Assembly (NCBI GenBank): GCA_036726225.1 | Contig: DAIMCS010000001.1 | Location: 5,776-69,775 of the forward strand | Source: Patescibacteria group bacterium | GTDB taxonomy: Bacteria > Patescibacteriota > Doudnabacteria > UBA920 | Length of the DNA stretch: 64,000 nt | Direction: 5' to 3' | Shown here: positions 6,176 through 62,722 of the stretch, piece by piece | How positions within the stretch are numbered: the stretch's first letter is position 1 | Layout: every line of letters starts with the position of its first letter | The notes under the pieces: model-generated | The model's input: the letters and a program-made list of their open reading frames with translations, nothing else | Told to the model about the DNA's origin: nothing | Databases searched by the model: none | Made by a program: the position numbers and the translations under genes

Positions 6176-6204
6176 ACTACTATTTTAACGCTTTACTGCT
6201 TTTT

Positions 6205-6243
6205 GGGCAAAAAAAAGACCTCGGGTTACGCATAACCCGAGAG
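6205..6243 (-). terminator. rho-independent terminator (CTCGGGTTAcgcaTAACCCGAG plus T8 on the minus strand)
   Basis: 9-bp perfect stem; A-run on plus strand, T-run on minus strand; lies just downstream of the 36-aa peptide gene. Confidence 0.6.
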
Positions 6244-6246
6244 TCA

Positions 6247-6357
6247 TTAGCTGTCCGACAGGTCGGAAAAGATAGTCCGCCGAACACCTGCAATAATGCA
6301 GATGACAACAAAGACAACAACAGCAATCGCCACTATCCCTATTGTGATGAGATCCAT
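6247..6357 (-). CDS. 36-aa single-TM hydrophobic peptide (MDLITIGIVAIAVVVFVVICIIAGVRRTIFSDLSDS); candidate type I toxin-like small membrane protein
   Basis: Strong SD (GCTAGGAGGAACT-ATG) on the minus strand, hydrophobic core plus charged tail, dedicated terminator; it is the only coding-like part of the 184-aa ORF 6247..6801. Confidence 0.4.
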   Translation of the reverse strand: MDLITIGIVAIAVVVFVVICIIAGVRRTIFSDLSDS

Positions 6358-6434
6358 AGTTCCTCCTAGCTTAGACAGGCTACAGTAATTCTGCGCCAAA
6401 ATCAAGCCTTGAGACTTTAGTGGATTTTTAAGCT

Positions 6435-6463
6435 TTGACATACAAAGACCGGAACAGTAAAAT
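6435..6463 (+). promoter_or_regulatory. sigma70-type promoter (TTGACA-17-TAAAAT) driving the RRM-protein gene
   Basis: Consensus -35 and near-consensus -10 with 17-nt spacer. Confidence 0.5.
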
Positions 6464-6505
6464 ACCCTAAAGTACAAAGGGGGCAAAAATGTCTTTTGCA
6501 TCCTT

Positions 6506-6829
6506 TTGTTTTTTTCAGCTGCCCAAAGTAGCATCGGGCGCAGACAGCAGAACAACGTGGCGAGAATTTTTGTAAGCAACCTTCCCGTCGATTGTGAATG
6601 GATTGACGTGCGCCGATGGCTGGAAACCATGGGATACTCTACAGGGTTCATTGTTGTCCAGCCAAATACTTCAACAAATAACCCCGGAAGCTTCGCAATT
6701 GTGGCTCTTCCGGAAGTCAAAGACGCCGTAGAGGCCGCACGGCATTTAAACGGCCAAATGTTCTCGGGCAATATCCTGTTTGTGAGCAAGGCAAGAAACA
6801 AACGAAAAAAAGACCGCCGGGTATTTTGA
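6506..6829 (+). CDS. RRM (RNA-recognition motif) domain RNA-binding protein; true start probably GTG 6557 (MARIFVSNLP…)
   Basis: RNP2-like IFVSNLP and RNP1-like GSFAIVAL motifs, basic C-tail. Upstream, ATG 6489 with a good SD opens a 28-aa out-of-frame uORF that overlaps the GTG; a T7 homopolymer lies at 6503-6509. Confidence 0.7.
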   Translation: MFFSAAQSSIGRRQQNNVARIFVSNLPVDCEWIDVRRWLETMGYSTGFIVVQPNTSTNNPGSFAIVALPEVKDAVEAARHLNGQMFSGNILFVSKARNKRKKDRRVF

Positions 6830-6885
6830 CGAGATTGCCCCGGAACCCCGCTTGGCGGCCTGGCATGGAGCTAACCTGCCGCTAA

Positions 6886-6963
6886 CCCGGAAAAGAAATT
6901 AACTGTGTTATTCGAGATTGCGACTCCTCTCGATCTGTTAATTTTCTTTTTCGGGTTTTTTTA
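6886..6963 (+). terminator. rho-independent terminator after the RRM gene (long stem CCCGGAAAAGAAATTAAC / GTTAATTTTCTTTTTCGGG plus T8)
   Basis: Inverted repeat followed by gtttttttatttg. Confidence 0.6.
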
Positions 6964-6969
6964 TTTGAC

Positions 6970-7477
6970 AAAGCACTGCCAAAAACTGTAAGCTGCCAAT
7001 AAGCTAAACGGAGGATAATACGAGAATTTGGTGCGCTTTTTGCATCATCGTTTTATTGCTTAGTCCCCACGGGGATTAACGTTGCGAGTTCAGTGTCGTC
7101 AACCAATGGAGAACAACCCTATGATTGTATCCATCGAGTCCACAAGTCCGTAAGAAGGTAGCCGTTATCAAAGCCGGCCGGCAAATTGTACTCCACTGCA
7201 ATGCGATTGGTGGGATTTGCCGCCCGGCCGTCATTTTCAAATTTTTTTCGTATATTGAACTCCCGGCAGAGGTGCTGGACTGCACCATCCTACCGGGCCC
7301 CTGCTCCGGTCCCCCTTAGACTCAGATCTACTCAACCAGATCTTTGTCAGGAGGACCGGAGCCCCCTATTTCTTCGGAGGACTCATTTTAAATAATTCGC
7401 TTTTTAGTCCCTCCTTTAGATAGTGCCTAAAACACAAATGGTAACCCCATCTGTGTTTTAGGCCTCTTTTTTTGTTG
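6970..7477 (+). ncRNA. candidate structured non-coding RNA, about 500 nt, GC-rich, unclassified
   Basis: Only short, non-protein-like ORFs overlap here on both strands. Multiple perfect stems are present: AGCCGGCCGGCAAAT/ATTTGCCGCCCGGCC, GCTCCGGTCC/GGACCGGAGC, GGAGGACT/AGTCCCTCC. It ends in a strong terminator (CCTAAAACACA…TGTGTTTTAGG plus T7 at 7426-7477) and sits between the RRM-gene terminator and the purL promoter. Confidence 0.3.
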
Positions 7478-7478
7478 C

Positions 7479-7507
7479 TTGACAATACGGGATTTTTTGC
7501 TTACACT
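7479..7507 (+). promoter_or_regulatory. purL promoter TTGACA-17-TACACT
   Basis: Consensus -35 and good -10; a roughly 125-nt AT-rich leader follows, with tandem 14-bp repeats at 7599-7626. Confidence 0.5.
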
Positions 7508-7653
7508 GCGGGTGTAGAACACCGTGCAGAAATTGCTCCGCCCTAAAGACCCGACGACATCTTCATTTTTTCTTATTATGAGATGTTTTTTATTTTCTTT
7601 AACATATTCAACTTAACATATTCAACCTAAAATTATAAATCTTAAGTGAGTTA

Positions 7654-10600
7654 ATGACCCGCCTCTATACTACATACACCATCACAGACCCCAGGGCTAG
7701 ACTTAAAAAAAACCAGTTTGAAGCCTTGGGACTAAAAAACAAAATAGGAGCAGTGTATCTTGCGGACTGTTACACAATTGATGCTAAGCTGGACTCAAAA
7801 AAACTTGAAAAGGCAAAACACCTGCTTGCAAACCCGCTCATCCAAAAAACCCACACTAATCCCTCCACGCTACCCGCTACCCGCTTTTCCCACGCCATAG
7901 AAATTGGCTTTTTACCCGGAGTTACCGACAACGTTGGGCATACTGCCAGGGAAACATTGCAGGACGGCGCCAAGATAAAATTTAAACCTGGACAAAACGT
8001 TTACACGTCCCAGGTCTTTTTTATTTCAGGAAAAATTTCTTTTGCCGATGCAAATAAGATTGCATTGAGCCTGCATAATCCCCTAATCCAGAAGGCTAGT
8101 ATTACTTCTTGGGATGATTTTAAAAAAACCGGTCTTGGGTCTGGAATCCCGAAAGTTAAAATTAAATCCTCAAATAAAATTTTAAAGGTAAATTTAAATG
8201 TGGGCGATGAAGAACTGGCAAAACTTGGGAAGCTGGGAATTCCGGACTACCCCATTCCCGCGAAAGCGGGAATCCATAAAAATGGATCCCCGATCAAGTC
8301 GGGGATGGAAGAAAAGCGACGGGGCCCACTTGCTCTATCGCTGGGTGAACTAAAAGCAATTCAGGCTCACTTTAAAAAGCTGGGCAGACAGCCGACAGAT
8401 GTAGAATTAGAAGCCCTGGCCCAAACCTGGTCTGAGCACTGTAAGCACACAATTTTTTCCGATCCAATTGATGAAATTAAAGAGGGAATTTTTAAACATT
8501 ACATAAAGCGCGCCACTGAAGTAATCCGGAAAAAAAAGGGCCGTAAAGATTTTTGCGTCTCCGTCTTTACCGACAACGCGGGCGGAATTAGTTTTGACTC
8601 CAAAAATATTATTGCTTACAAAGTCGAAACCCATAACACGCCTTCGGCCTTAGACCCTTTTGGCGGCTCAATTACAGGCATTGGCGGAGTTAATCGCGAC
8701 GCTTTGGGTTTTGGCCTGGGCGCAAAACCGGTGGCAAATTTTTACGGCTTTTGTTTGGCTGACCCGGGGGACAAAACAAAATTATATCGTGACAAGCAAC
8801 TTAAAAACCCAATGCTTTCCTCCCGCAGGATTATGGACGGAGTTGTAGCGGGAATTAACGCGGGAGGTAACCAAAGCGGCATCCCCACGCCTTTGGGTTT
8901 TTTGTTTTTCGATTCTAGATACAGAGGCAAGCCTTTGGTGTTTGCAGGAACTTTAGGATTAATCCCCAAAAAAATTGGTAACAAAAAATCCTGGGTAAAA
9001 AAAGCCGAAAGCCAAGATTTAATAGTGATGGTCGGGGGTCGGGTCGGAATGGACGGCATTCACGGCGCTACGTTTTCATCTGAAGGGCTTTCTTCCCACT
9101 CCCCCGCAACCGCCGTGCAAATTGGCGATCCCATTACCCAAAAAAAGTTTTCTGATACTATTTGCAAAGAGGCAAGGGATTTAAATCTTTACAATTCTAT
9201 TACCGACTGCGGCGCCGGAGGAATTTCCAGCGCTGTTGGTGAAATGGCCAAAGAAGCCGGCGGCTGTTTAGTAGAGCTGGATAAAGTTCCGGTAAAATAT
9301 CCGGGCCTGGCACCCTGGCAAATTTGGATTTCAGAGTCGCAGGAAAGAATGGTTTTAGCCGTGCCAAAAAACAAATGGCAAAAATTTTTAAAGCTAATGA
9401 ACGCCAGAGGTGTAGAAGCCACGGTAATTGGCAAGTTTACTCAAGATAATAAATGCGTTGTTAAATACAACGGCAAAAACGTTTTAGATTTAGAAATGGA
9501 ATTTTTACACAACGGCCGGCCAAAGCAGCAGCAAACAACCCGTAAGTCAAAACCCGTAACTCATAAACTGATACTACAAAATAAAAAAGATTTTTCTGCT
9601 GACGTATTAAAAATGTTAGCGCGACTAAACATAACTTCCACAGAATTTGTTAACACCCAGTATGACCACGAAGTCCAAGGCACATCAATTTTAAAACCAC
9701 TCCAAGGCCGCGGCAAAATTAACTCCGAAGCCGCGGTAATTCGCCCTTTGCTGGATTCTAAAAAAGGCGTTGTGCTTTCTTATGGGCTTAATCCTCTACT
9801 TTCAGAAACTGACGCTTACAAAATGTCAGCCAATAGTATAGATGCGGCAATTCGTTCTGCTGTGGCCGCGGGAGCAAATGTTAATTACATGGCGATATTA
9901 GATAACTTCTGTTGGTGTTCACCTCACGATCCAAAAAGACTTTATCAACTTAAAAAAGCAGCCCAAGCCTGCTTTGATATTGCCACTGCTTACGGCACGC
10001 CGTTTATTTCGGGCAAAGACAGTATGCACAACGACTTTAAAGGTTTTGGAAATGACGGTAAACCTTTAAAAATATCAATCCCGCCAACTCTATTAATAAC
10101 CACAATGGGAGTTATAGAGAATGTAGAAAAAGCAATTTCTCTCGATGTTAAACTGCCGGGCGACTTACTCTATATATTAGGAGAGACAAATAACGAACTG
10201 GCCGGAAGCGAATACCTTAATTATGTCATTCCCGCGCAGGCGGGAATCCAAAAACTTGGGATTACTCCAAGTGTTAACACTGATAAAAACCTAAAACTCT
10301 ACCGCTCTTTCTATCAGGCAGTACAAAACAACCTTGTAGCATCCGCCATAAGTGTAAACCGCGGCGGACTCGCTGTTGCTGTGTCAAAATCGGTAATGGG
10401 CGGCGGCCTTGGCGTACAAATTGACCTTAAAAATTTACCGGGAAACTGGAAAGTCAACGCAGAAGGTTTATTTTCAGAAAGTGCCGGCAGAATTTTGGTG
10501 AGCGTGGCCCCTCAAAACGCACAGAAGTTTGAAAAACTTATGCATGGAAATGTATTTGCAAAAATCGGACAAGTGGGGAAAAATCCAAAGCTCGTGATAA

Positions 10601-11531: not shown

Positions 11532-11994
11532 GCGAACTTACGAAATAATCGAACTACGAACCATGTATTCGCCTAATAAAATTAAAAAAACAGACCTCTT
11601 GTATCCAGAATTATCTTACAAAATTGTTGGAGCCCTTTTAGAAGTTAATAAAGAACTCGGGCCAAATCATCAAGAAAAACATTACCAGAAAGCAATAGCC
11701 GAAGAATTTAGACTAAAAGGAATTAATTTTAAGGAACAAGTTCCGATAAAATTGGTTTACAAAGATTTTCCAATCGGAATTTATTATGCCGATTTTATTG
11801 TTGAAGATAAAATTATCGTGGAATTAAAAACAGACCGATTTTTCACGAGAAAAAATATAGAGCAAACGCTCGCATATTTAAAAAGTTTTAATTTGAAACT
11901 TGGTATACTATCAAATTTTACTAAGAAAGGCTTAGAATATAAAAGAATTGTTAATTTAGAGACCGTTCGTAGTTCGGAAAAGTTCGTAAGTTCG
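11532..11994 (+). mobile_element. GxxExxY-gene cassette bounded by 29-bp imperfect terminal inverted repeats (CGAACTTACGAAataatCGAACTACGAAC … GTTCGTAGTTCGgaaaaGTTCGTAAGTTCG)
   Basis: IRs at 11532-11562 and 11965-11994 precisely bracket ORF 11563..12009 between purQ and purF; the ORF C-terminus is translated through the right IR. Confidence 0.5.
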
Positions 11995-12009
11995 AAGGAG
12001 CCAATATGA
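11563..12009 (+). CDS. GxxExxY-family protein (PD-(D/E)XK-like)
   Basis: VGALLEVNKELGPNHQEKHYQKAIAEEF matches the GxxExxY signature region; its stop overlaps the purF ATG. Confidence 0.75.
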   Translation: MYSPNKIKKTDLLYPELSYKIVGALLEVNKELGPNHQEKHYQKAIAEEFRLKGINFKEQVPIKLVYKDFPIGIYYADFIVEDKIIVELKTDRFFTRKNIEQTLAYLKSFNLKLGILSNFTKKGLEYKRIVNLETVRSSEKFVSSKEPI

Positions 12010-13440: not shown

Positions 13441-13476
13441 ACAATACATTCATACACGACTGTATGAATGTATTGT
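13441..13476. repeat. 36-bp perfect palindrome ACAATACATTCATACAcgacTGTATGAATGTATTGT immediately 5' of the YerC-like gene
   Basis: 16-bp perfect arms; a near-identical copy lies at 13975-14002 immediately 3' of the same gene. Confidence 0.7.
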
Positions 13477-13482
13477 CCGAAT

Positions 13483-13974
13483 ATGACAAAATTATCGCGT
13501 AAACACTTAGACCCAGAAAACTTTGGCCACTATGTTAACAACTTATGGTCGGCTTTTACTTTAATGGATTCTAAAGAAGATATTAAAACACTCTTTAAAG
13601 ATTTATTCACACACACCGAATACAAAATGTTTGCCAAGAGAATGGAGATCGCGAGACGGCTGCTAGAAGGTCAAACCTATGAGCAAATAGATAAAGAGTT
13701 ACACGTAACCGCAAGGACAATTACCACCGTAAACAATATTTTAGCTGAAAGGGGTGAGGGCTTACGCAAGGCTCACAATAAACTAAGTGCTTTGGAAGCA
13801 AAATATTTAGACAAACATCAGAAGATTACAAAAAACTTAGAAAACCCCTTCCGACAAAAGGCGAAAAGGAAAACCCTGGGAGGAGCCTTGCTTAAAGCCG
13901 GAATAATGGCCTTAGACAAAAGGATTAGCAAAAAATTAAAAGACAAAACCGCAAAAGACATGCTCGAAATTTAA
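13483..13974 (+). CDS. TrpR-like YerC/YecD-family DNA-binding protein with C-terminal basic extension
   Basis: LFKDLFTHTEYKMFAKRMEIARRLLEGQTYEQIDKELHVTARTITTVNNIL matches the YerC/TrpR-related HTH. Start set at the second ATG, outside the palindrome. Confidence 0.6.
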   Translation: MTKLSRKHLDPENFGHYVNNLWSAFTLMDSKEDIKTLFKDLFTHTEYKMFAKRMEIARRLLEGQTYEQIDKELHVTARTITTVNNILAERGEGLRKAHNKLSALEAKYLDKHQKITKNLENPFRQKAKRKTLGGALLKAGIMALDKRISKKLKDKTAKDMLEI

Positions 13975-19918: not shown

Positions 19919-20325
19919 CCTCCCTCCCCTGGAGGGGGAGGGCTGGGGAGGGGTGAATGACAAACCACACAACTCAAATATCAAGAAAGCTGCGCAATAA
20001 TCTAACCGAAGCAGAAAAAAAGCTATGGTATTATTTACGCAACAACAATCTCGGTGAAAAATTCAGAAGACAGCAACTTATTGGTACGTATTACGTCGAC
20101 TTTATCTGCCTAAAAAAATACTTAATTATTGAAGTTGACGGCGGGCAGCATTACGATTCTGCTGATGATAAAATTAGAGATAATTTTTTCAAAAAAGAAG
20201 GTTTTACAGTTTTAAGATTTTGGAACAATGAAGTTTTAGAAAACATTGAGGAAGTGTTAGAAAAAATCAAGGCTTATTTATAATTCATCACCCTCCCCTA
20301 ACCCCTCCCCTCAAGGGAGGGGAAT
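19919..20325 (+). mobile_element. GGGAGGGG palindromic element (copy E1) carrying a DUF559 endonuclease gene in its central loop
   Basis: Left arm 19919-19956 (CCTCCCTCCCCtggaGGGGGAGGGctgGGGAGGGGTGA) and right arm 20284-20325 (TCACCCTCCCCtaaCCCCTCCCctcaaGGGAGGGG) match the empty copies at 25145, 30988 and 35941. The ORF fills the spacer exactly, with its ATG abutting GGTGA and its TAA abutting TTCATCACCC. Confidence 0.6.
19957..20283 (+). CDS. DUF559 endonuclease-domain protein (Vsr-like / PD-(D/E)XK fold)
   Basis: 108 aa; YYVDF…IIEVDGGQH…D..R…L…G..VLRFWN signature of DUF559. Confidence 0.8.
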   Translation: MTNHTTQISRKLRNNLTEAEKKLWYYLRNNNLGEKFRRQQLIGTYYVDFICLKKYLIIEVDGGQHYDSADDKIRDNFFKKEGFTVLRFWNNEVLENIEEVLEKIKAYL

Positions 20326-29557: not shown

Positions 29558-29590
29558 CAAGAACCTCCTTAAGGGTAACTAATAATAGCA

Positions 29591-29620
29591 AAAAAAGCCT
29601 GGAAATGTCCAGGCTTTTTG
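29591..29620. terminator. bidirectional terminator (AAAAAAGCCTGGAaatgTCCAGGCTTTTTG)
   Basis: 8-bp stem, A-run on plus strand, T-run on minus strand. Confidence 0.6.
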
Positions 29621-29629
29621 TTTACTTAA

Positions 29630-29824
29630 CTATTTTTTATTCGCGTACTTCATTCCTGTATACGCCAAAAATATCGCAATGGGCATTGCCACCCAGCTCG
29701 CCCACATTGGCGCAGTAAAGCCGCCAATTTGCAATTCCCAACCGTTTAAAATACGCAAAATGTGCAGTACGCCGACCACGGTAAAAATAGCCGCGGCAGT
29801 CTGCAAAAAGACTTTTTGTCTCAT
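29630..29824 (-). CDS. small membrane protein (64 aa, 2 TM)
   Basis: Hydrophobic profile; flanked by terminators. Confidence 0.4.
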   Translation of the reverse strand: MRQKVFLQTAAAIFTVVGVLHILRILNGWELQIGGFTAPMWASWVAMPIAIFLAYTGMKYANKK

Positions 29825-30062
29825 TTTTATTGTTTGTTTCCTTTCGCCTGCAAGGGACGAAATTTACTATTTTCTTTATTATACACCCTTGGTTTTTGCA
29901 AAATCAAATTTTTAATATTTTGTTTGTGGGTTAAATTTTTTTAGTCTGCTTTTACAAGCTTATATTTGAGTAAAAAATCCTTAATTTTGAAACATTGCTA
30001 AGTTGTCCGCGATGAGCAAAATATAGCATTTTACAATTAATTTTTTGGGGGAGGTGGTATAT

Positions 30063-30167
30063 ATGGCAACTCAAGCACAAAAAAAAGCCGCGCGAGAAAA
30101 CCTTAAAAAGGCCAGAGCGGCGAGGAGGCGTAACAGCCAGTCAACCGACGAAAGCGCCTATAATTAG
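30063..30167 (+). CDS. 34-aa highly basic small protein (MATQAQKKAAREKLKKARAARRRNSQSTDESAYN)
   Basis: SD GGGGGAGG 8 nt upstream; followed by a 15-bp perfect hairpin terminator. It is below the ORF-track size cutoff. Confidence 0.25.
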   Translation: MATQAQKKAARENLKKARAARRRNSQSTDESAYN

Positions 30168-30181
30168 CAATGCAGCCCTAT

Positions 30182-30213
30182 AACACCATCCCGACGACCG
30201 TCGGGATGGTGTT
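30182..30213. terminator. bidirectional terminator AACACCATCCCGACGaccGTCGGGATGGTGTT
   Basis: 15-bp perfect stem between convergent genes. Confidence 0.6.
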
Positions 30214-30226
30214 ATTTAAAACAATA

Positions 30227-30958: not shown

Positions 30959-30987
30959 AAATAAGATGTTAAAAAATTATGTTTTGA

Positions 30988-31092
30988 ATTCCCTCCCCTT
31001 GAGGGGGAGGGATTGGGAGGGGTGAAGTCAAAATCATCACCCTCCCCCTGCCTGCCGGCAGGCAGGCTAACCCCTCCCATCCAGGGAGGGGA
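30988..31092. repeat. GGGAGGGG palindromic element copy E3 (empty; extra internal palindrome CCTGCCTGCCGGCAGGCAGG)
   Basis: Same arms as E1 and E2; spacer agtcaaaatca. Confidence 0.8.
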
Positions 31093-31341
31093 AATTGAAA
31101 AATAAAAAGACCCCGGAGTTTCGGGGCCAATTATAAATAAATTACAAAAGCCCCGAATCAGCTATGATCGGAAAGCTTAAGGAATAAATTATGATAGCTA
31201 ACAATTACCATATATTAAGTGTACTACAAAACTTTTGTAGATGCAACCCTTGTCGGAAAACTTCGTTTATGGTATTGTATGTAGTTGCCATCATCAACGA
31301 TTTAACTTTCAACAGAGGCGAAAAAACGCCAAGGAGGATAG

Positions 31342-35783: not shown

Positions 35784-35835
35784 CTATTATTAAATTGAAT
35801 ATACAAAAAACAATGGGCGTAACCCATTGTTTTTT

Positions 35836-35927
35836 TGTGTCATTCCGGTCCGCCTTAGGCGGATAATTTTATCCGGAATCTATTCATTGGCTAATTTCTG
35901 GATCCCGGATCGGTGTCCGGGATGACA
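35836..35927. mobile_element. MITE-like element with terminal inverted repeats TGTCATTCCGG … CCGGGATGACA and internal hairpins (TCCGCCttaGGCGGA; ATCCCGGAtcggtgTCCGGGAT)
   Basis: Direct reading. Related ends recur at 36383-36452, 36487-36520, 59095-59120 and 62316-62407. Confidence 0.5.
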
Positions 35928-35940
35928 TTTTTAGATTTGA

Positions 35941-36032
35941 TTCCTCCCCCTTGATGGGGGAGGTTAGGAGGGGGTGAAGGATAAAAAAACTTTATCACCC
36001 TCCCCTGCCGGCAGGCAGGCTCGGAATGACAT
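35941..36032. repeat. GGGAGGGG palindromic element copy E4 (right hairpin replaced by CCTGCCGGCAGGCAGG…CGGAATGACAT)
   Basis: Left arm TTCCTCCCCCttgatGGGGGAGGttaGGAGGGGGTGA and TCACCCTCCCC right half. Confidence 0.7.
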
Positions 36033-36049
36033 AAAGATAGGTAAATATT

Positions 36050-58097: not shown

Positions 58098-58213
58098 ATC
58101 ATTCTTATTTTAGCATACCCCTGGAGTTTGGCCGTTAAAAAATATCAACAACACAAATTTTCACCATAAAATGTTAAACCCCCTCGTCCTAAAATGGATG
58201 GAGGGGGTTTAAA

Positions 58214-58333
58214 CTAAGGTAGCTTTTCCCATATGCGATTTTTCTCGTTTTCTACTTAATTGTAGATGTCAGGTATAAGCACCTGTAGGCTTTATCGACT
58301 CCCGCTTGTGCGGGATTTAGAAAAGCTACCTAG
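58214..58333. repeat. inverted-repeat element (TAAGGTAGCTTTTC … GAAAAGCTACCTAG) enclosing a TCCCGCttgtGCGGGA hairpin, in a 430-bp non-coding gap
   Basis: 13/14-bp long-range IR; core hairpin of the TTCCCGC…GCGGGAA family. Confidence 0.5.
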
Positions 58334-58533
58334 GCACACCATAACCTGTTAGTCATCTATTACTTTCCTTTCTACTTATATTATCGCGCTTGCCCTATAA
58401 ATGTGTCAACCCAAAAAATCCGCCCAAAATATGAGCGGATTTGAATGCGGTGGATAAACTGTTTATAATGAATTGATAAAAAATAAGGAAGCCCCATGAA
58501 CTGATCACAGCTCGCGGGGCTTTCTTGTCTTCT

Positions 58534-62305: not shown

Positions 62306-62315
62306 AAAAAAGTTG

Positions 62316-62407
62316 AGTCATCCCGACCGAAGTGGAGGGATCCCTTTAATCTAGTATTTAAGATTCCCGCCTTCGCCTGCCTACCGCAGGCAGGCGGGAA
62401 TGACATT
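62316..62407. mobile_element. MITE-like element (GTCATCCCGACC … nested TTCCCGCCttcgCCTGCCTACCGCAGGCAGGCGGGAATGACAT)
   Basis: Terminal GTCATCC/GGAATGAC IRs; nested hairpins shared with 37361-37433 and with the E3/E4 CCTGCC…GGCAGG palindromes. Confidence 0.5.
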
Positions 62408-62490
62408 GTTATTCTAGCTTATTTTGCTATATTGACAAAATAGGCCTTTTTGTGATATAATATTAGGTTAGTATAAATAGTTGATTTTTA

Positions 62491-62580
62491 TGTCGTCCCG
62501 GAATCGCAATTTATTGCGATATCCGGGATCTAAGGCCCTGGCTTTGTTTTTCTGGATTCCCGCCTTCGCGGGAATGGACA
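62491..62580. mobile_element. MITE-like element (TGTCGTCCCGGAATCGCAAtttatTGCGATATCCGGGAT … TTCCCGCcttcGCGGGAATGGACA)
   Basis: Two hairpin modules, both with paralogs elsewhere in the window. Confidence 0.5.
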
Positions 62581-62722
62581 CAGGTGGTTTCCCGTTTAAT
62601 CAACTCTTTACGTTTTTAAAGAGTTTGAGAGTTCTTTAACAGTTCGTAAATTTCTGCCAGCGGCGCTCCGCTGGTCGTCGAAACCTTTCCGGTGAAAATC
62701 GGAACAAACCTTAGGAGGGTTT

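Follow-up and report, generated by a model that had tools for sequence, protein, structure and literature searches.

A putative structured RNA unit of about 470 nt, fast-evolving and lineage-specific, upstream of purL in a Patescibacteria genome

Positions ~7001–7473 on the + strand of the window (the whole 64-kb stretch of DNA analysed here) are tentatively read as an independently transcribed, fast-evolving and lineage-specific structured RNA of approximately 470 nt, a reading to which we give slightly less than an even chance. The region would be a separate transcription unit, encoding an ncRNA that is confined to a small Patescibacteria clade. We infer that RNA is produced from it, and the 5′ end of this RNA is predicted to pair with sequence that immediately precedes the terminator. 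This pairing would close two domains: one made up of four small hairpins, and one in which three long arms radiate from a junction closed by a stem. By analogy with base-pairing and sponge sRNAs, the RNA would act in trans, as a riboregulator or a protein-binding RNA with a fast-evolving sequence, as opposed to a ribozyme or riboswitch built around a conserved core. That it keeps to one place by the pur promoter would then be a matter of shared regulation or inheritance, with purL not being directly controlled through attenuation.

The organism belongs to the Patescibacteria/CPR as judged by purL, with a best purL identity of about 61–63%. The unit lies in the gap of 824 nt (positions 6830–7653) between two genes that are both on the + strand. 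Upstream is a gene for a small RRM protein, which starts at 6506 or 6558 and ends at 6829 (Pfam RRM_1, E 3.5e-8). A search with this protein found one homologue only, from the same strain, and no record was found that matches its sequence exactly. Downstream is purL, which begins with an ATG at 7654, encodes a 1009-aa FGAM synthase of the PurS-PurL type and is the first gene of the pur operon. The gap contains the following elements:

6885..6962, + strand: terminator of the RRM gene, a long hairpin (6885–6955) and T7 (6956–6962), read by eye and from inverted repeats I5 and I12; it bounds the unit on the upstream side.
6965..6994, + strand: promoter-like site read by eye, TTGACA (6965–6970), an 18-nt spacer and TAAGCT (6989–6994).
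7004..7014, + strand: CUAAA-C-GGAGG, the 5′ side of a predicted terminal helix, which pairs with 7410–7419 (CCUCC-UUUAG) at a probability of 0.95–0.98.
7029..7134, + strand: Domain I of the predicted fold, four short hairpins (7029–7047, 7060–7079, 7081–7103 and 7106–7134).
7136..7384, + strand: predicted Domain II, with a closing stem of ~19 bp (7136–7161 with 7366–7384), from the MFE structure, pair probabilities of 0.7–1.0 and inverted repeats I8 and I9.
7173..7228, 7262..7297 and 7303..7362, + strand: the three predicted arms of Domain II, from the same evidence.
7410..7419, + strand: the matching 3′ side of the terminal helix, predicted from pair probabilities; it contains CCUCCUUU.
7422..7473, + strand: intrinsic terminator, a stem of 12 + 4 bp, a 5-nt loop and T7, from the letters, inverted repeat I4 and pair probabilities.
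7479..7527, + strand: purL promoter, TTGACA, a 17-nt spacer and TACACT, with an imperfect palindrome or hairpin at the transcription start; the downstream boundary, outside the unit.

Some features of the upstream flank are recorded in their own right. A hairpin followed by a U-run lies in the RRM gene's 5′ UTR (6475–6512), with a strong promoter upstream of it (TTGACA at 6435, a 17-nt spacer, TAAAAT); this leader hairpin may be an attenuator for an RNA-binding-protein gene. On the − strand, 6247–6360 is a 37-codon ORF encoding a single hydrophobic helix (MDLITIGIVAIAVVVFVVICIIAGVRRTIFSDLSDS), which is equipped with a ribosome-binding site (GGAGGA) and a separate terminator (6242–6219 followed by T8). 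The JGI contig of the same strain carries an identical copy of this ORF, which resembles a type I toxin. A weak, miRNA-like Rfam match at 6885–6962 is due to hairpin shape only.

At its 5′ end, the unit has a promoter-like site immediately after the RRM-gene terminator, where the initial annotation had placed a promoter of the TTGACA type. The −35 stands as described, at 6965–6970, but the −10 is weaker than this implied. The site has 9 of 12 consensus matches, and as only 3 of 6 fall in the −10, it lies below the threshold of the promoter scan and is not listed there. The TAAGCT does resemble the −10 elements of the purL promoters in the clade (TAAACT, TACACT), and transcription would start near 7001. 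At the 3′ end, the intrinsic terminator that had been reported is confirmed. Its stem (7425–7436/7452–7463) has 12 perfect bp, an A·C mismatch and 4 bp more, and is followed by CUC and T7 at 7467–7473. It ends 6 nt before the purL −35 (TTGACA at 7479) and is functional in the + orientation only, as there is no T-run after the stem on the − strand. The + strand was chosen on the basis of the promoter and terminator signals, with G·U counts and MFE giving mixed results. As the RRM gene is already strongly terminated, the second terminator presupposes a separate transcript for it to stop.

A different account of these signals is a real, if lesser, possibility. Here, the gap would be hairpin-rich DNA without a function of its own, lying where the pur operon meets the variable flank (HAD/LigT/RRM). 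It would be a tolerated zone of fast turnover that gathers GC-rich palindromes and leftover signals, and the terminator would merely shield purL from read-through. The weak −10 in the window speaks for this account, and the presence of a separate RRM-gene terminator speaks against it.

The base composition of the unit is less distinctive than had been stated. A GC content of ~55% was claimed for 6970–7477, and this is overstated: the interval has 47.0% GC, rising to 52.6% over 7060–7380, and only the core at 7150–7380 reaches 54.1%, in a window with a mean of 43.1%. Segments of 508 nt have a mean GC of 43.0 ± 3.8% with a 90th percentile of 48%, which places 6970–7477 ~1 sd above the mean.

Folding of the + strand (6990–7470) yields −174.7 kcal/mol versus −127 ± 5.6 in dinucleotide shuffles (z −8.6), and the − strand folds about equally well (z −7.3). 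Most predicted helices have a pair probability of at least 0.9. Perfect stems of 8–15 bp had been described; perfect runs of 8–12 bp are present, but the long stems, with arms of 14–17 nt, are near-perfect only, at 93–94% complementarity. The two-domain architecture of 7004–7419 is a prediction of the folding model. In this prediction, Domain II is the GC-rich core (53–54% GC), and the first hairpin of Domain I (7029–7047) is followed by a U-rich tail, making it weakly terminator-like. The terminal helix (7004–7014/7410–7419) is a duplex that is not significantly above shuffles (p 0.07) and it is absent from the relatives. The GNRA and UNCG tetraloops that are common in complex RNAs are absent from the hairpin loops of the unit.

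The strength of the fold has to be read against the rest of the window, which contains about ten intergenic gaps of at least 250 nt between two called genes. Five others fold comparably, with z-scores of −4.8 to −11, and because these long intergenic regions equal it, the fold z-score is not distinctive for the unit. This favours the view that the gap is functionless spacer DNA, as does the fact that this genome abounds in families of short palindromes rich in GC, which are found in-frame even within purL and largely account for the strong folds elsewhere in the window. These families include ATTCCCGC..GCGGGAAT, CCCTCCCC..GGGGAGGG and CCTGCCTGCCGGCAGGCAGG. The hairpins of the unit, however, belong to no repeat family within the 64-kb window, where they are single-copy. 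A palindromic repeat or MITE family was therefore rejected: when 6200–7699 was compared to the 64-kb window with blastn-short, the longest match was 13 nt exact, or 17 nt with one mismatch.

The repeats themselves merit description. Hairpin repeats that are GC-rich, with stems of 8 bp, form intergenic clusters (CCCTCCCC/GGGGAGGG, CCCCTCCC/GGGAGGGG, CCTGCCTGCCGGCAGGCAGG, ACCCCCGACC..GGTCGGGGGT) and are found at 19922, 20302, 25147, 25208, 30990, 31047, 31071 and 35902, and also at 35943, 37110, 37365, 37410, 42190, 44564, 62374 and 62556. Inside purL, in-frame GC-rich palindromes lie at 8254–8273, 8286–8306 and 10228–10247 (ATTCCCGC..GCGGGAAT, ATCCCCGA..TCGGGGAT). After the LGKLGIP(D/E) sequence of purL, each genome of the clade has a different insert, with almost none (3 residues) in L204. 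This site is an insertion hotspot and the palindromes resemble the in-frame palindromic elements of Rickettsia. The five strongly folding regions are 35784–36049, 30959–31341, 58098–58533, 62306–62722 and 29561–30226 (z about −5 to −11). Some of them hold unique hairpins and terminators beside the repeat families, and could be further RNA candidates.

Relatives were sought by purL in 185,579 species genomes and a set of 5.8 billion proteins. The window forms a clade with four loci, L082, L083, L204 and L002, whose purL N-termini are ~63% identical to that of the window and 67–74% identical to one another. The sole near relative is a contig of the same strain, which ends at 6992, and blastn and nhmmer on 80 purL loci of the genome collection returned this contig only. 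The same strain is present in JGI metagenome 3300012039. The upstream sequence of L083 is only 165 nt, so that the comparison of layout rests on L082, L204, L002 and the window. Contigs L082, L083, L204 and L205 (ENA ERZ250394xx-395xx) have purL and other genes split into 2–3 ORFs, which suggests indel errors of long-read assembly. With such errors suspected, indels in the non-coding units of these four contigs are untrustworthy.

The three relatives have a common layout upstream of purL: a promoter-like site, structured non-coding DNA, a terminator-like hairpin with a T-run and the purL promoter. The counterpart units (L082, 9149–9621; L204, 1184–1655; L002, 204–703) are about 450–490 nt long, GC-rich and non-coding, with fold z-scores of −3.8 to −5.3, and their promoter-like sites have 10–11 of 12 matches. 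The distance from the −10 of the unit to the −35 of purL is 485 nt in the window and 452, 476 and 494 nt in the other genomes. By comparison, at 34 more distant purL loci, the first ORF of 70 aa or more mostly lies <150 nt upstream of purL. A promoter-like start site and a similar length (452–494 nt), kept in four of four genomes, count against the spacer account.

Only L002 and L204 have units that are detectably homologous. Their 5′ 160 nt align (local alignment z 6.4, with 0 of 500 shuffles reaching the score), and 4 of 21 predicted pairs in their common helices are compensatory. From this alignability and these compensatory pairs, the unit in L002 and L204 is under some constraint. Neutral DNA should be saturated at this distance, which again argues against functionless spacer DNA.

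Pairwise local alignments that involve the units of the window or L082 are at chance level (window z −1.2 to +2.4), and the units could not be usefully aligned with MAFFT L-INS-i. Two covariance models, one from a single sequence (R1) and one from two sequences (R2), found nothing significant at the expected site, and an unbiased search for shared motifs across the units did no better than shuffles. As there is no significant similarity to the relatives, the window unit is matched to theirs by position, length and layout, and the units are treated as positional and organisational counterparts whose orthology is unproven. Thus, the conservation in relatives that the initial annotation had proposed as a check holds for layout and place in L082, L204 and L002, but does not extend to sequence, motif or covariance-model similarity. 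That the window unit shares no sequence with the others is also a point for the spacer account, as is the variable gene content upstream of purL. A loss of sequence similarity at this divergence is normal for regulatory sRNAs, and unusual for ribozymes, riboswitches and housekeeping RNAs.

Two other lines of homology evidence were rejected. A module found by eye, comprising a hairpin with a UGCCA loop, AAC..GGRGG and a possible CUGGCA pseudoknot partner, seemed rare (2 matches per 1.19 Mb) and agreed with k-mer enrichment. It was set aside because the descriptor was set post hoc and neither the covariance models nor the unbiased motif search supported it. A metagenome scan with ACTGCRGGTGNNNNNCACCG used too loose a pattern, and all 120 matches were chance matches in GC-rich DNA.

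The far flank of the locus varies. LigT is present there in L082 and L204, and the window has the gene for the 37-aa peptide and the RRM gene; HAD is the next conserved gene beyond this variable flank. The grouping of the unit with an RRM gene and a membrane-peptide gene, which had been thought suggestive, is thus not conserved, as relatives carry LigT or other genes there. In L082, a second structured unit running from promoter to terminator was seen at 7620–8020 (fold z −4.3), with a 33-codon ORF that has a ribosome-binding site. It sits upstream of a 192-aa ORF rich in Thr, Asn and Ala. The same locus has short tandem repeats at 7462–7490 and 8855–8890 (TATCTGTCC/TATTTGTCC).

It is very improbable that the unit serves as an mRNA encoding tiny proteins, whether one or several. 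Its ORFs are short and overlapping, the longest in the gap being 70 aa, with no Pfam match for any of them and no match at E≤10 when the six-frame translation was searched against 5.8 billion proteins; the description of the locus as carrying only short overlapping ORFs is upheld. In favour of an mRNA are the three copies of GGAGGA in the unit (7010, 7350 and 7376), a motif that is enriched over the four units, and the ATG that lies 8–9 nt past the −10 in L082, L204 and L002, opening leaderless ORFs of 46, 71 and 23 codons, respectively. In the window, however, there is no start codon at a workable distance from any GGAGGA, and no ORF of the unit joins a start codon with a ribosome-binding site. 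The ORFs of the relatives differ in length and sequence, with an early stop in L002 despite its DNA homology to L204. Protein and Pfam searches gave no match.

The unit belongs, by sequence and model searches, to no known RNA family. Scanning with cmscan against the 4227 families of Rfam 15 gave nothing at the gathering threshold, and over 6300–7700 only chance-level matches at E≤10. In L082, the interval 7400–10050 had no Rfam match at E≤1. This was the covariance scan, inclusive of ROOL, GOLLD and OLE, suggested in the initial annotation, and no family was matched. Several classes were considered and rejected individually. RNase P RNA (P4 core with CR-I GGAAAGUCCGG and CR-V ACAGAACCCGGCUUA; type A/B model) had no Rfam match over 6300–7700 at E≤10. 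For tmRNA, with its tRNA-like ends and tag reading frame, neither ARAGORN nor Rfam gave a match; ARAGORN reported only tRNA-Asn in the window. SRP RNA (helix-8 motif) and 6S RNA (a rod of ~180 nt with a central bubble) had no Rfam match at E≤10, and the predicted fold is a multibranch structure of 470 nt as opposed to the 6S rod. OLE, GOLLD, ROOL, HEARO and raiA gave only chance-level cmscan matches in the region. A sponge like CsrB/RsmZ requires GGA motifs exposed in loops, and the GGAGGA copies sit in predicted stems. Phage, plasmid and viral collections had no match to the unit. Together with the result for riboswitches below, Rfam at E≤10 and ARAGORN agree with the earlier failure to see RNase P, tmRNA, SRP RNA or ZTP/purine riboswitch signatures by inspection.

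It is likewise a slim prospect that the unit is a decayed gene, such as LigT, or an RNase P, tmRNA or 6S RNA that has diverged too far to be recognized. LigT proteins of L082 and L204 do match the − strand at 7145–7312 by tblastn, weakly (E 0.07–0.22 in a search space of 1.5 kb), and the window has no other housekeeping RNA, so that absence there proves nothing. The LigT match is, however, not significant with three queries, not collinear, without the HxT motifs and without Pfam support. The six-frame, Pfam and LigT tblastn searches found no significant protein homology, and the decayed pseudogene that had been named as a counter-reading is thus not borne out. As for housekeeping RNAs, besides the lack of an Rfam match at E≤10 and of a tmRNA by ARAGORN, such an RNA would retain a conserved core across the clade. 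The suggestion of an unclassified large structured RNA stands in part: the locus is non-coding, structured, terminated and outside Rfam 15, but the window unit has no significant similarity to the units of its relatives.

The boundary with purL bears on whether the unit acts in cis. The purL promoter carries a clade motif, ACTGCRGGTG-N5-CACCG (also TAAACTGCAGGTG-N5-CACCGC), at the −10 and transcription start. It is present in five of five clade loci (window, L002, L082, L083 and L204) and absent from the other 78 purL loci of the genome collection (L003–L081 or L205). We regard it as unlikely that the unit is a leader of purL, in which transcripts from upstream would cross a sensor domain and the 7425–7473 terminator would be the expression platform. 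Read-through would then add to purL expression, and the element would amount to an attenuator of great length, either riboswitch-like or under the control of a protein. The unit is always immediately upstream of purL, and there is precedent in the purS motif (PMC11109978), upstream of FGAM synthase, and in the Fibro-purF motif, upstream of purF. However, a conserved −35 and −10 with a variable spacer lie between the terminator and purL in five of five genomes, and this promoter is followed by a short leader of its own with a terminator-like hairpin. With its own conserved promoter and leader, purL has no need of the upstream promoter. An aptamer should keep conserved nucleotides clade-wide, and none were found. 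The riboswitches considered (ZTP/pfl, purine, PRPP, THF and NMT1) were rejected, as neither these nor any other Rfam riboswitch matched and the conserved promoter separates the unit from purL. An RNA duplex search of the unit versus the purL leader gave no signal over shuffles.

The purL control region has features of its own. The nearly invariant element GCTAAACTGCAGGTG-GAAGA-CACCGCAA is conserved far above the promoter spacer and is found at 7479–7527 in the window, 9629–9675 in L082, 1688–1734 in L204, 725–771 in L002 and 18–64 in L083. The palindrome may be a pur-repressor operator or a 5′ leader hairpin. The pur operon holds a Trp-repressor-family gene and a PD-(D/E)XK nuclease-family gene (13468–13974 and 11563–12009), and the conserved purL operator is a candidate target of the TrpR-like protein. 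In all clade members, the short leader contains a small hairpin followed by U5–U7 and is attenuator-like (window, 7557–7591; L082, 9807–9833; L204, 1763–1787; L083, about 85–112). The 5′ hairpin has a loop, GGAAGA, that in L082 and L204 is identical in sequence to the leader terminator's 3′ arm, and this identity would permit a terminator/antiterminator switch. The 5′ UTR of purL in the window also has a perfect tandem duplication at 7599–7626, consisting of two copies of a 14-nt unit, TTAACATATTCAAC.

Returning to the reading of the unit as a trans-acting RNA, a broader proposal, which we consider possible but less likely than not, is that the unit belongs, together with its counterparts in L082, L002 and L204, to a single new Patescibacteria-clade family of ~470-nt structured RNAs that keeps its length, its architecture and its position next to the pur promoter. 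If true, the family would be one whose sequence drifts beyond recognition, and a CPR-specific riboregulator, perhaps linked to purine metabolism or to the flanking RNA-handling genes (LigT, RRM). Patescibacteria have tiny genomes and few classical regulators, and to our knowledge, few non-coding RNAs have been described in them. A 470-nt RNA beside the purine operon would, if true, be an entry point to regulation in this group and possibly a new RNA class. At present, the main value lies in having a candidate locus, and four loci to compare it with, where transcripts could be mapped and sampling deepened.

Among known systems, the unit can be compared with stand-alone sRNA genes. RNAIII of Staphylococcus is ~500 nt long, and lineage-restricted sRNA genes have their own promoter and Rho-independent terminator. 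RNAIII and the sponges of the CsrB/RsmZ type are also stand-alone units with many stable hairpins and an intrinsic terminator. Like such lineage-restricted sRNAs, the unit has poor conservation of primary sequence at family and order distances, and is enriched in GGAGGA/GGA. It differs from CsrB/RsmZ in that its GGA motifs are mostly in predicted stems and not in loops, and no CsrA or Hfq context was seen. At ~470 nt, it is at the long end for lineage-restricted sRNAs.

A second comparison is with RNAs upstream of purine genes. The Fibro-purF motif represents a candidate cis-regulatory RNA upstream of an early purine-biosynthesis gene. Corynebacterium's purS motif (WRC-75-1) is a candidate cis-regulatory RNA upstream of the FGAM synthase (purS-purL) operon (PMC11109978). 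Both are, like the unit, structured non-coding stretches just upstream of one or more purine genes. They lie in the 5′ UTR, where masking of the ribosome-binding site has been proposed, whereas the unit is cut off from purL by a terminator and a conserved promoter.

The unit also follows the same logic as the ‘low-ranking’ or ‘unnamed’ motifs of GC-IGR/DIMPL searches, namely, a long intergenic region of raised GC in a genome of lower GC (PMC11109978, PMC8723152). In the terms of the GC-IGR survey, it is a ‘low-ranking candidate’, with <5 representatives and no usable consensus model, as in the low-ranking motifs. The survey obtained 607 low-ranking and 427 unnamed candidates versus 55 high-ranking and 10 sRNA candidates (PMC11109978), and as such candidates mostly ended as ‘unnamed’ or ‘low-ranking’, this was counted against the functional-RNA reading. 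The unit differs from the GC-IGR candidates in its modest GC excess (47% against 43%) and in its host; Patescibacteria are not mentioned in the text of the 50-genome survey (PMC11109978). Finally, repeats such as REP/BIME, RPE and MITE are also GC-rich, near-perfect intergenic hairpins, and this genome hosts such families. In contrast to these, the hairpins of the unit occur once in 64 kb, are longer and nested, and sit in a single frame that runs from promoter to terminator.
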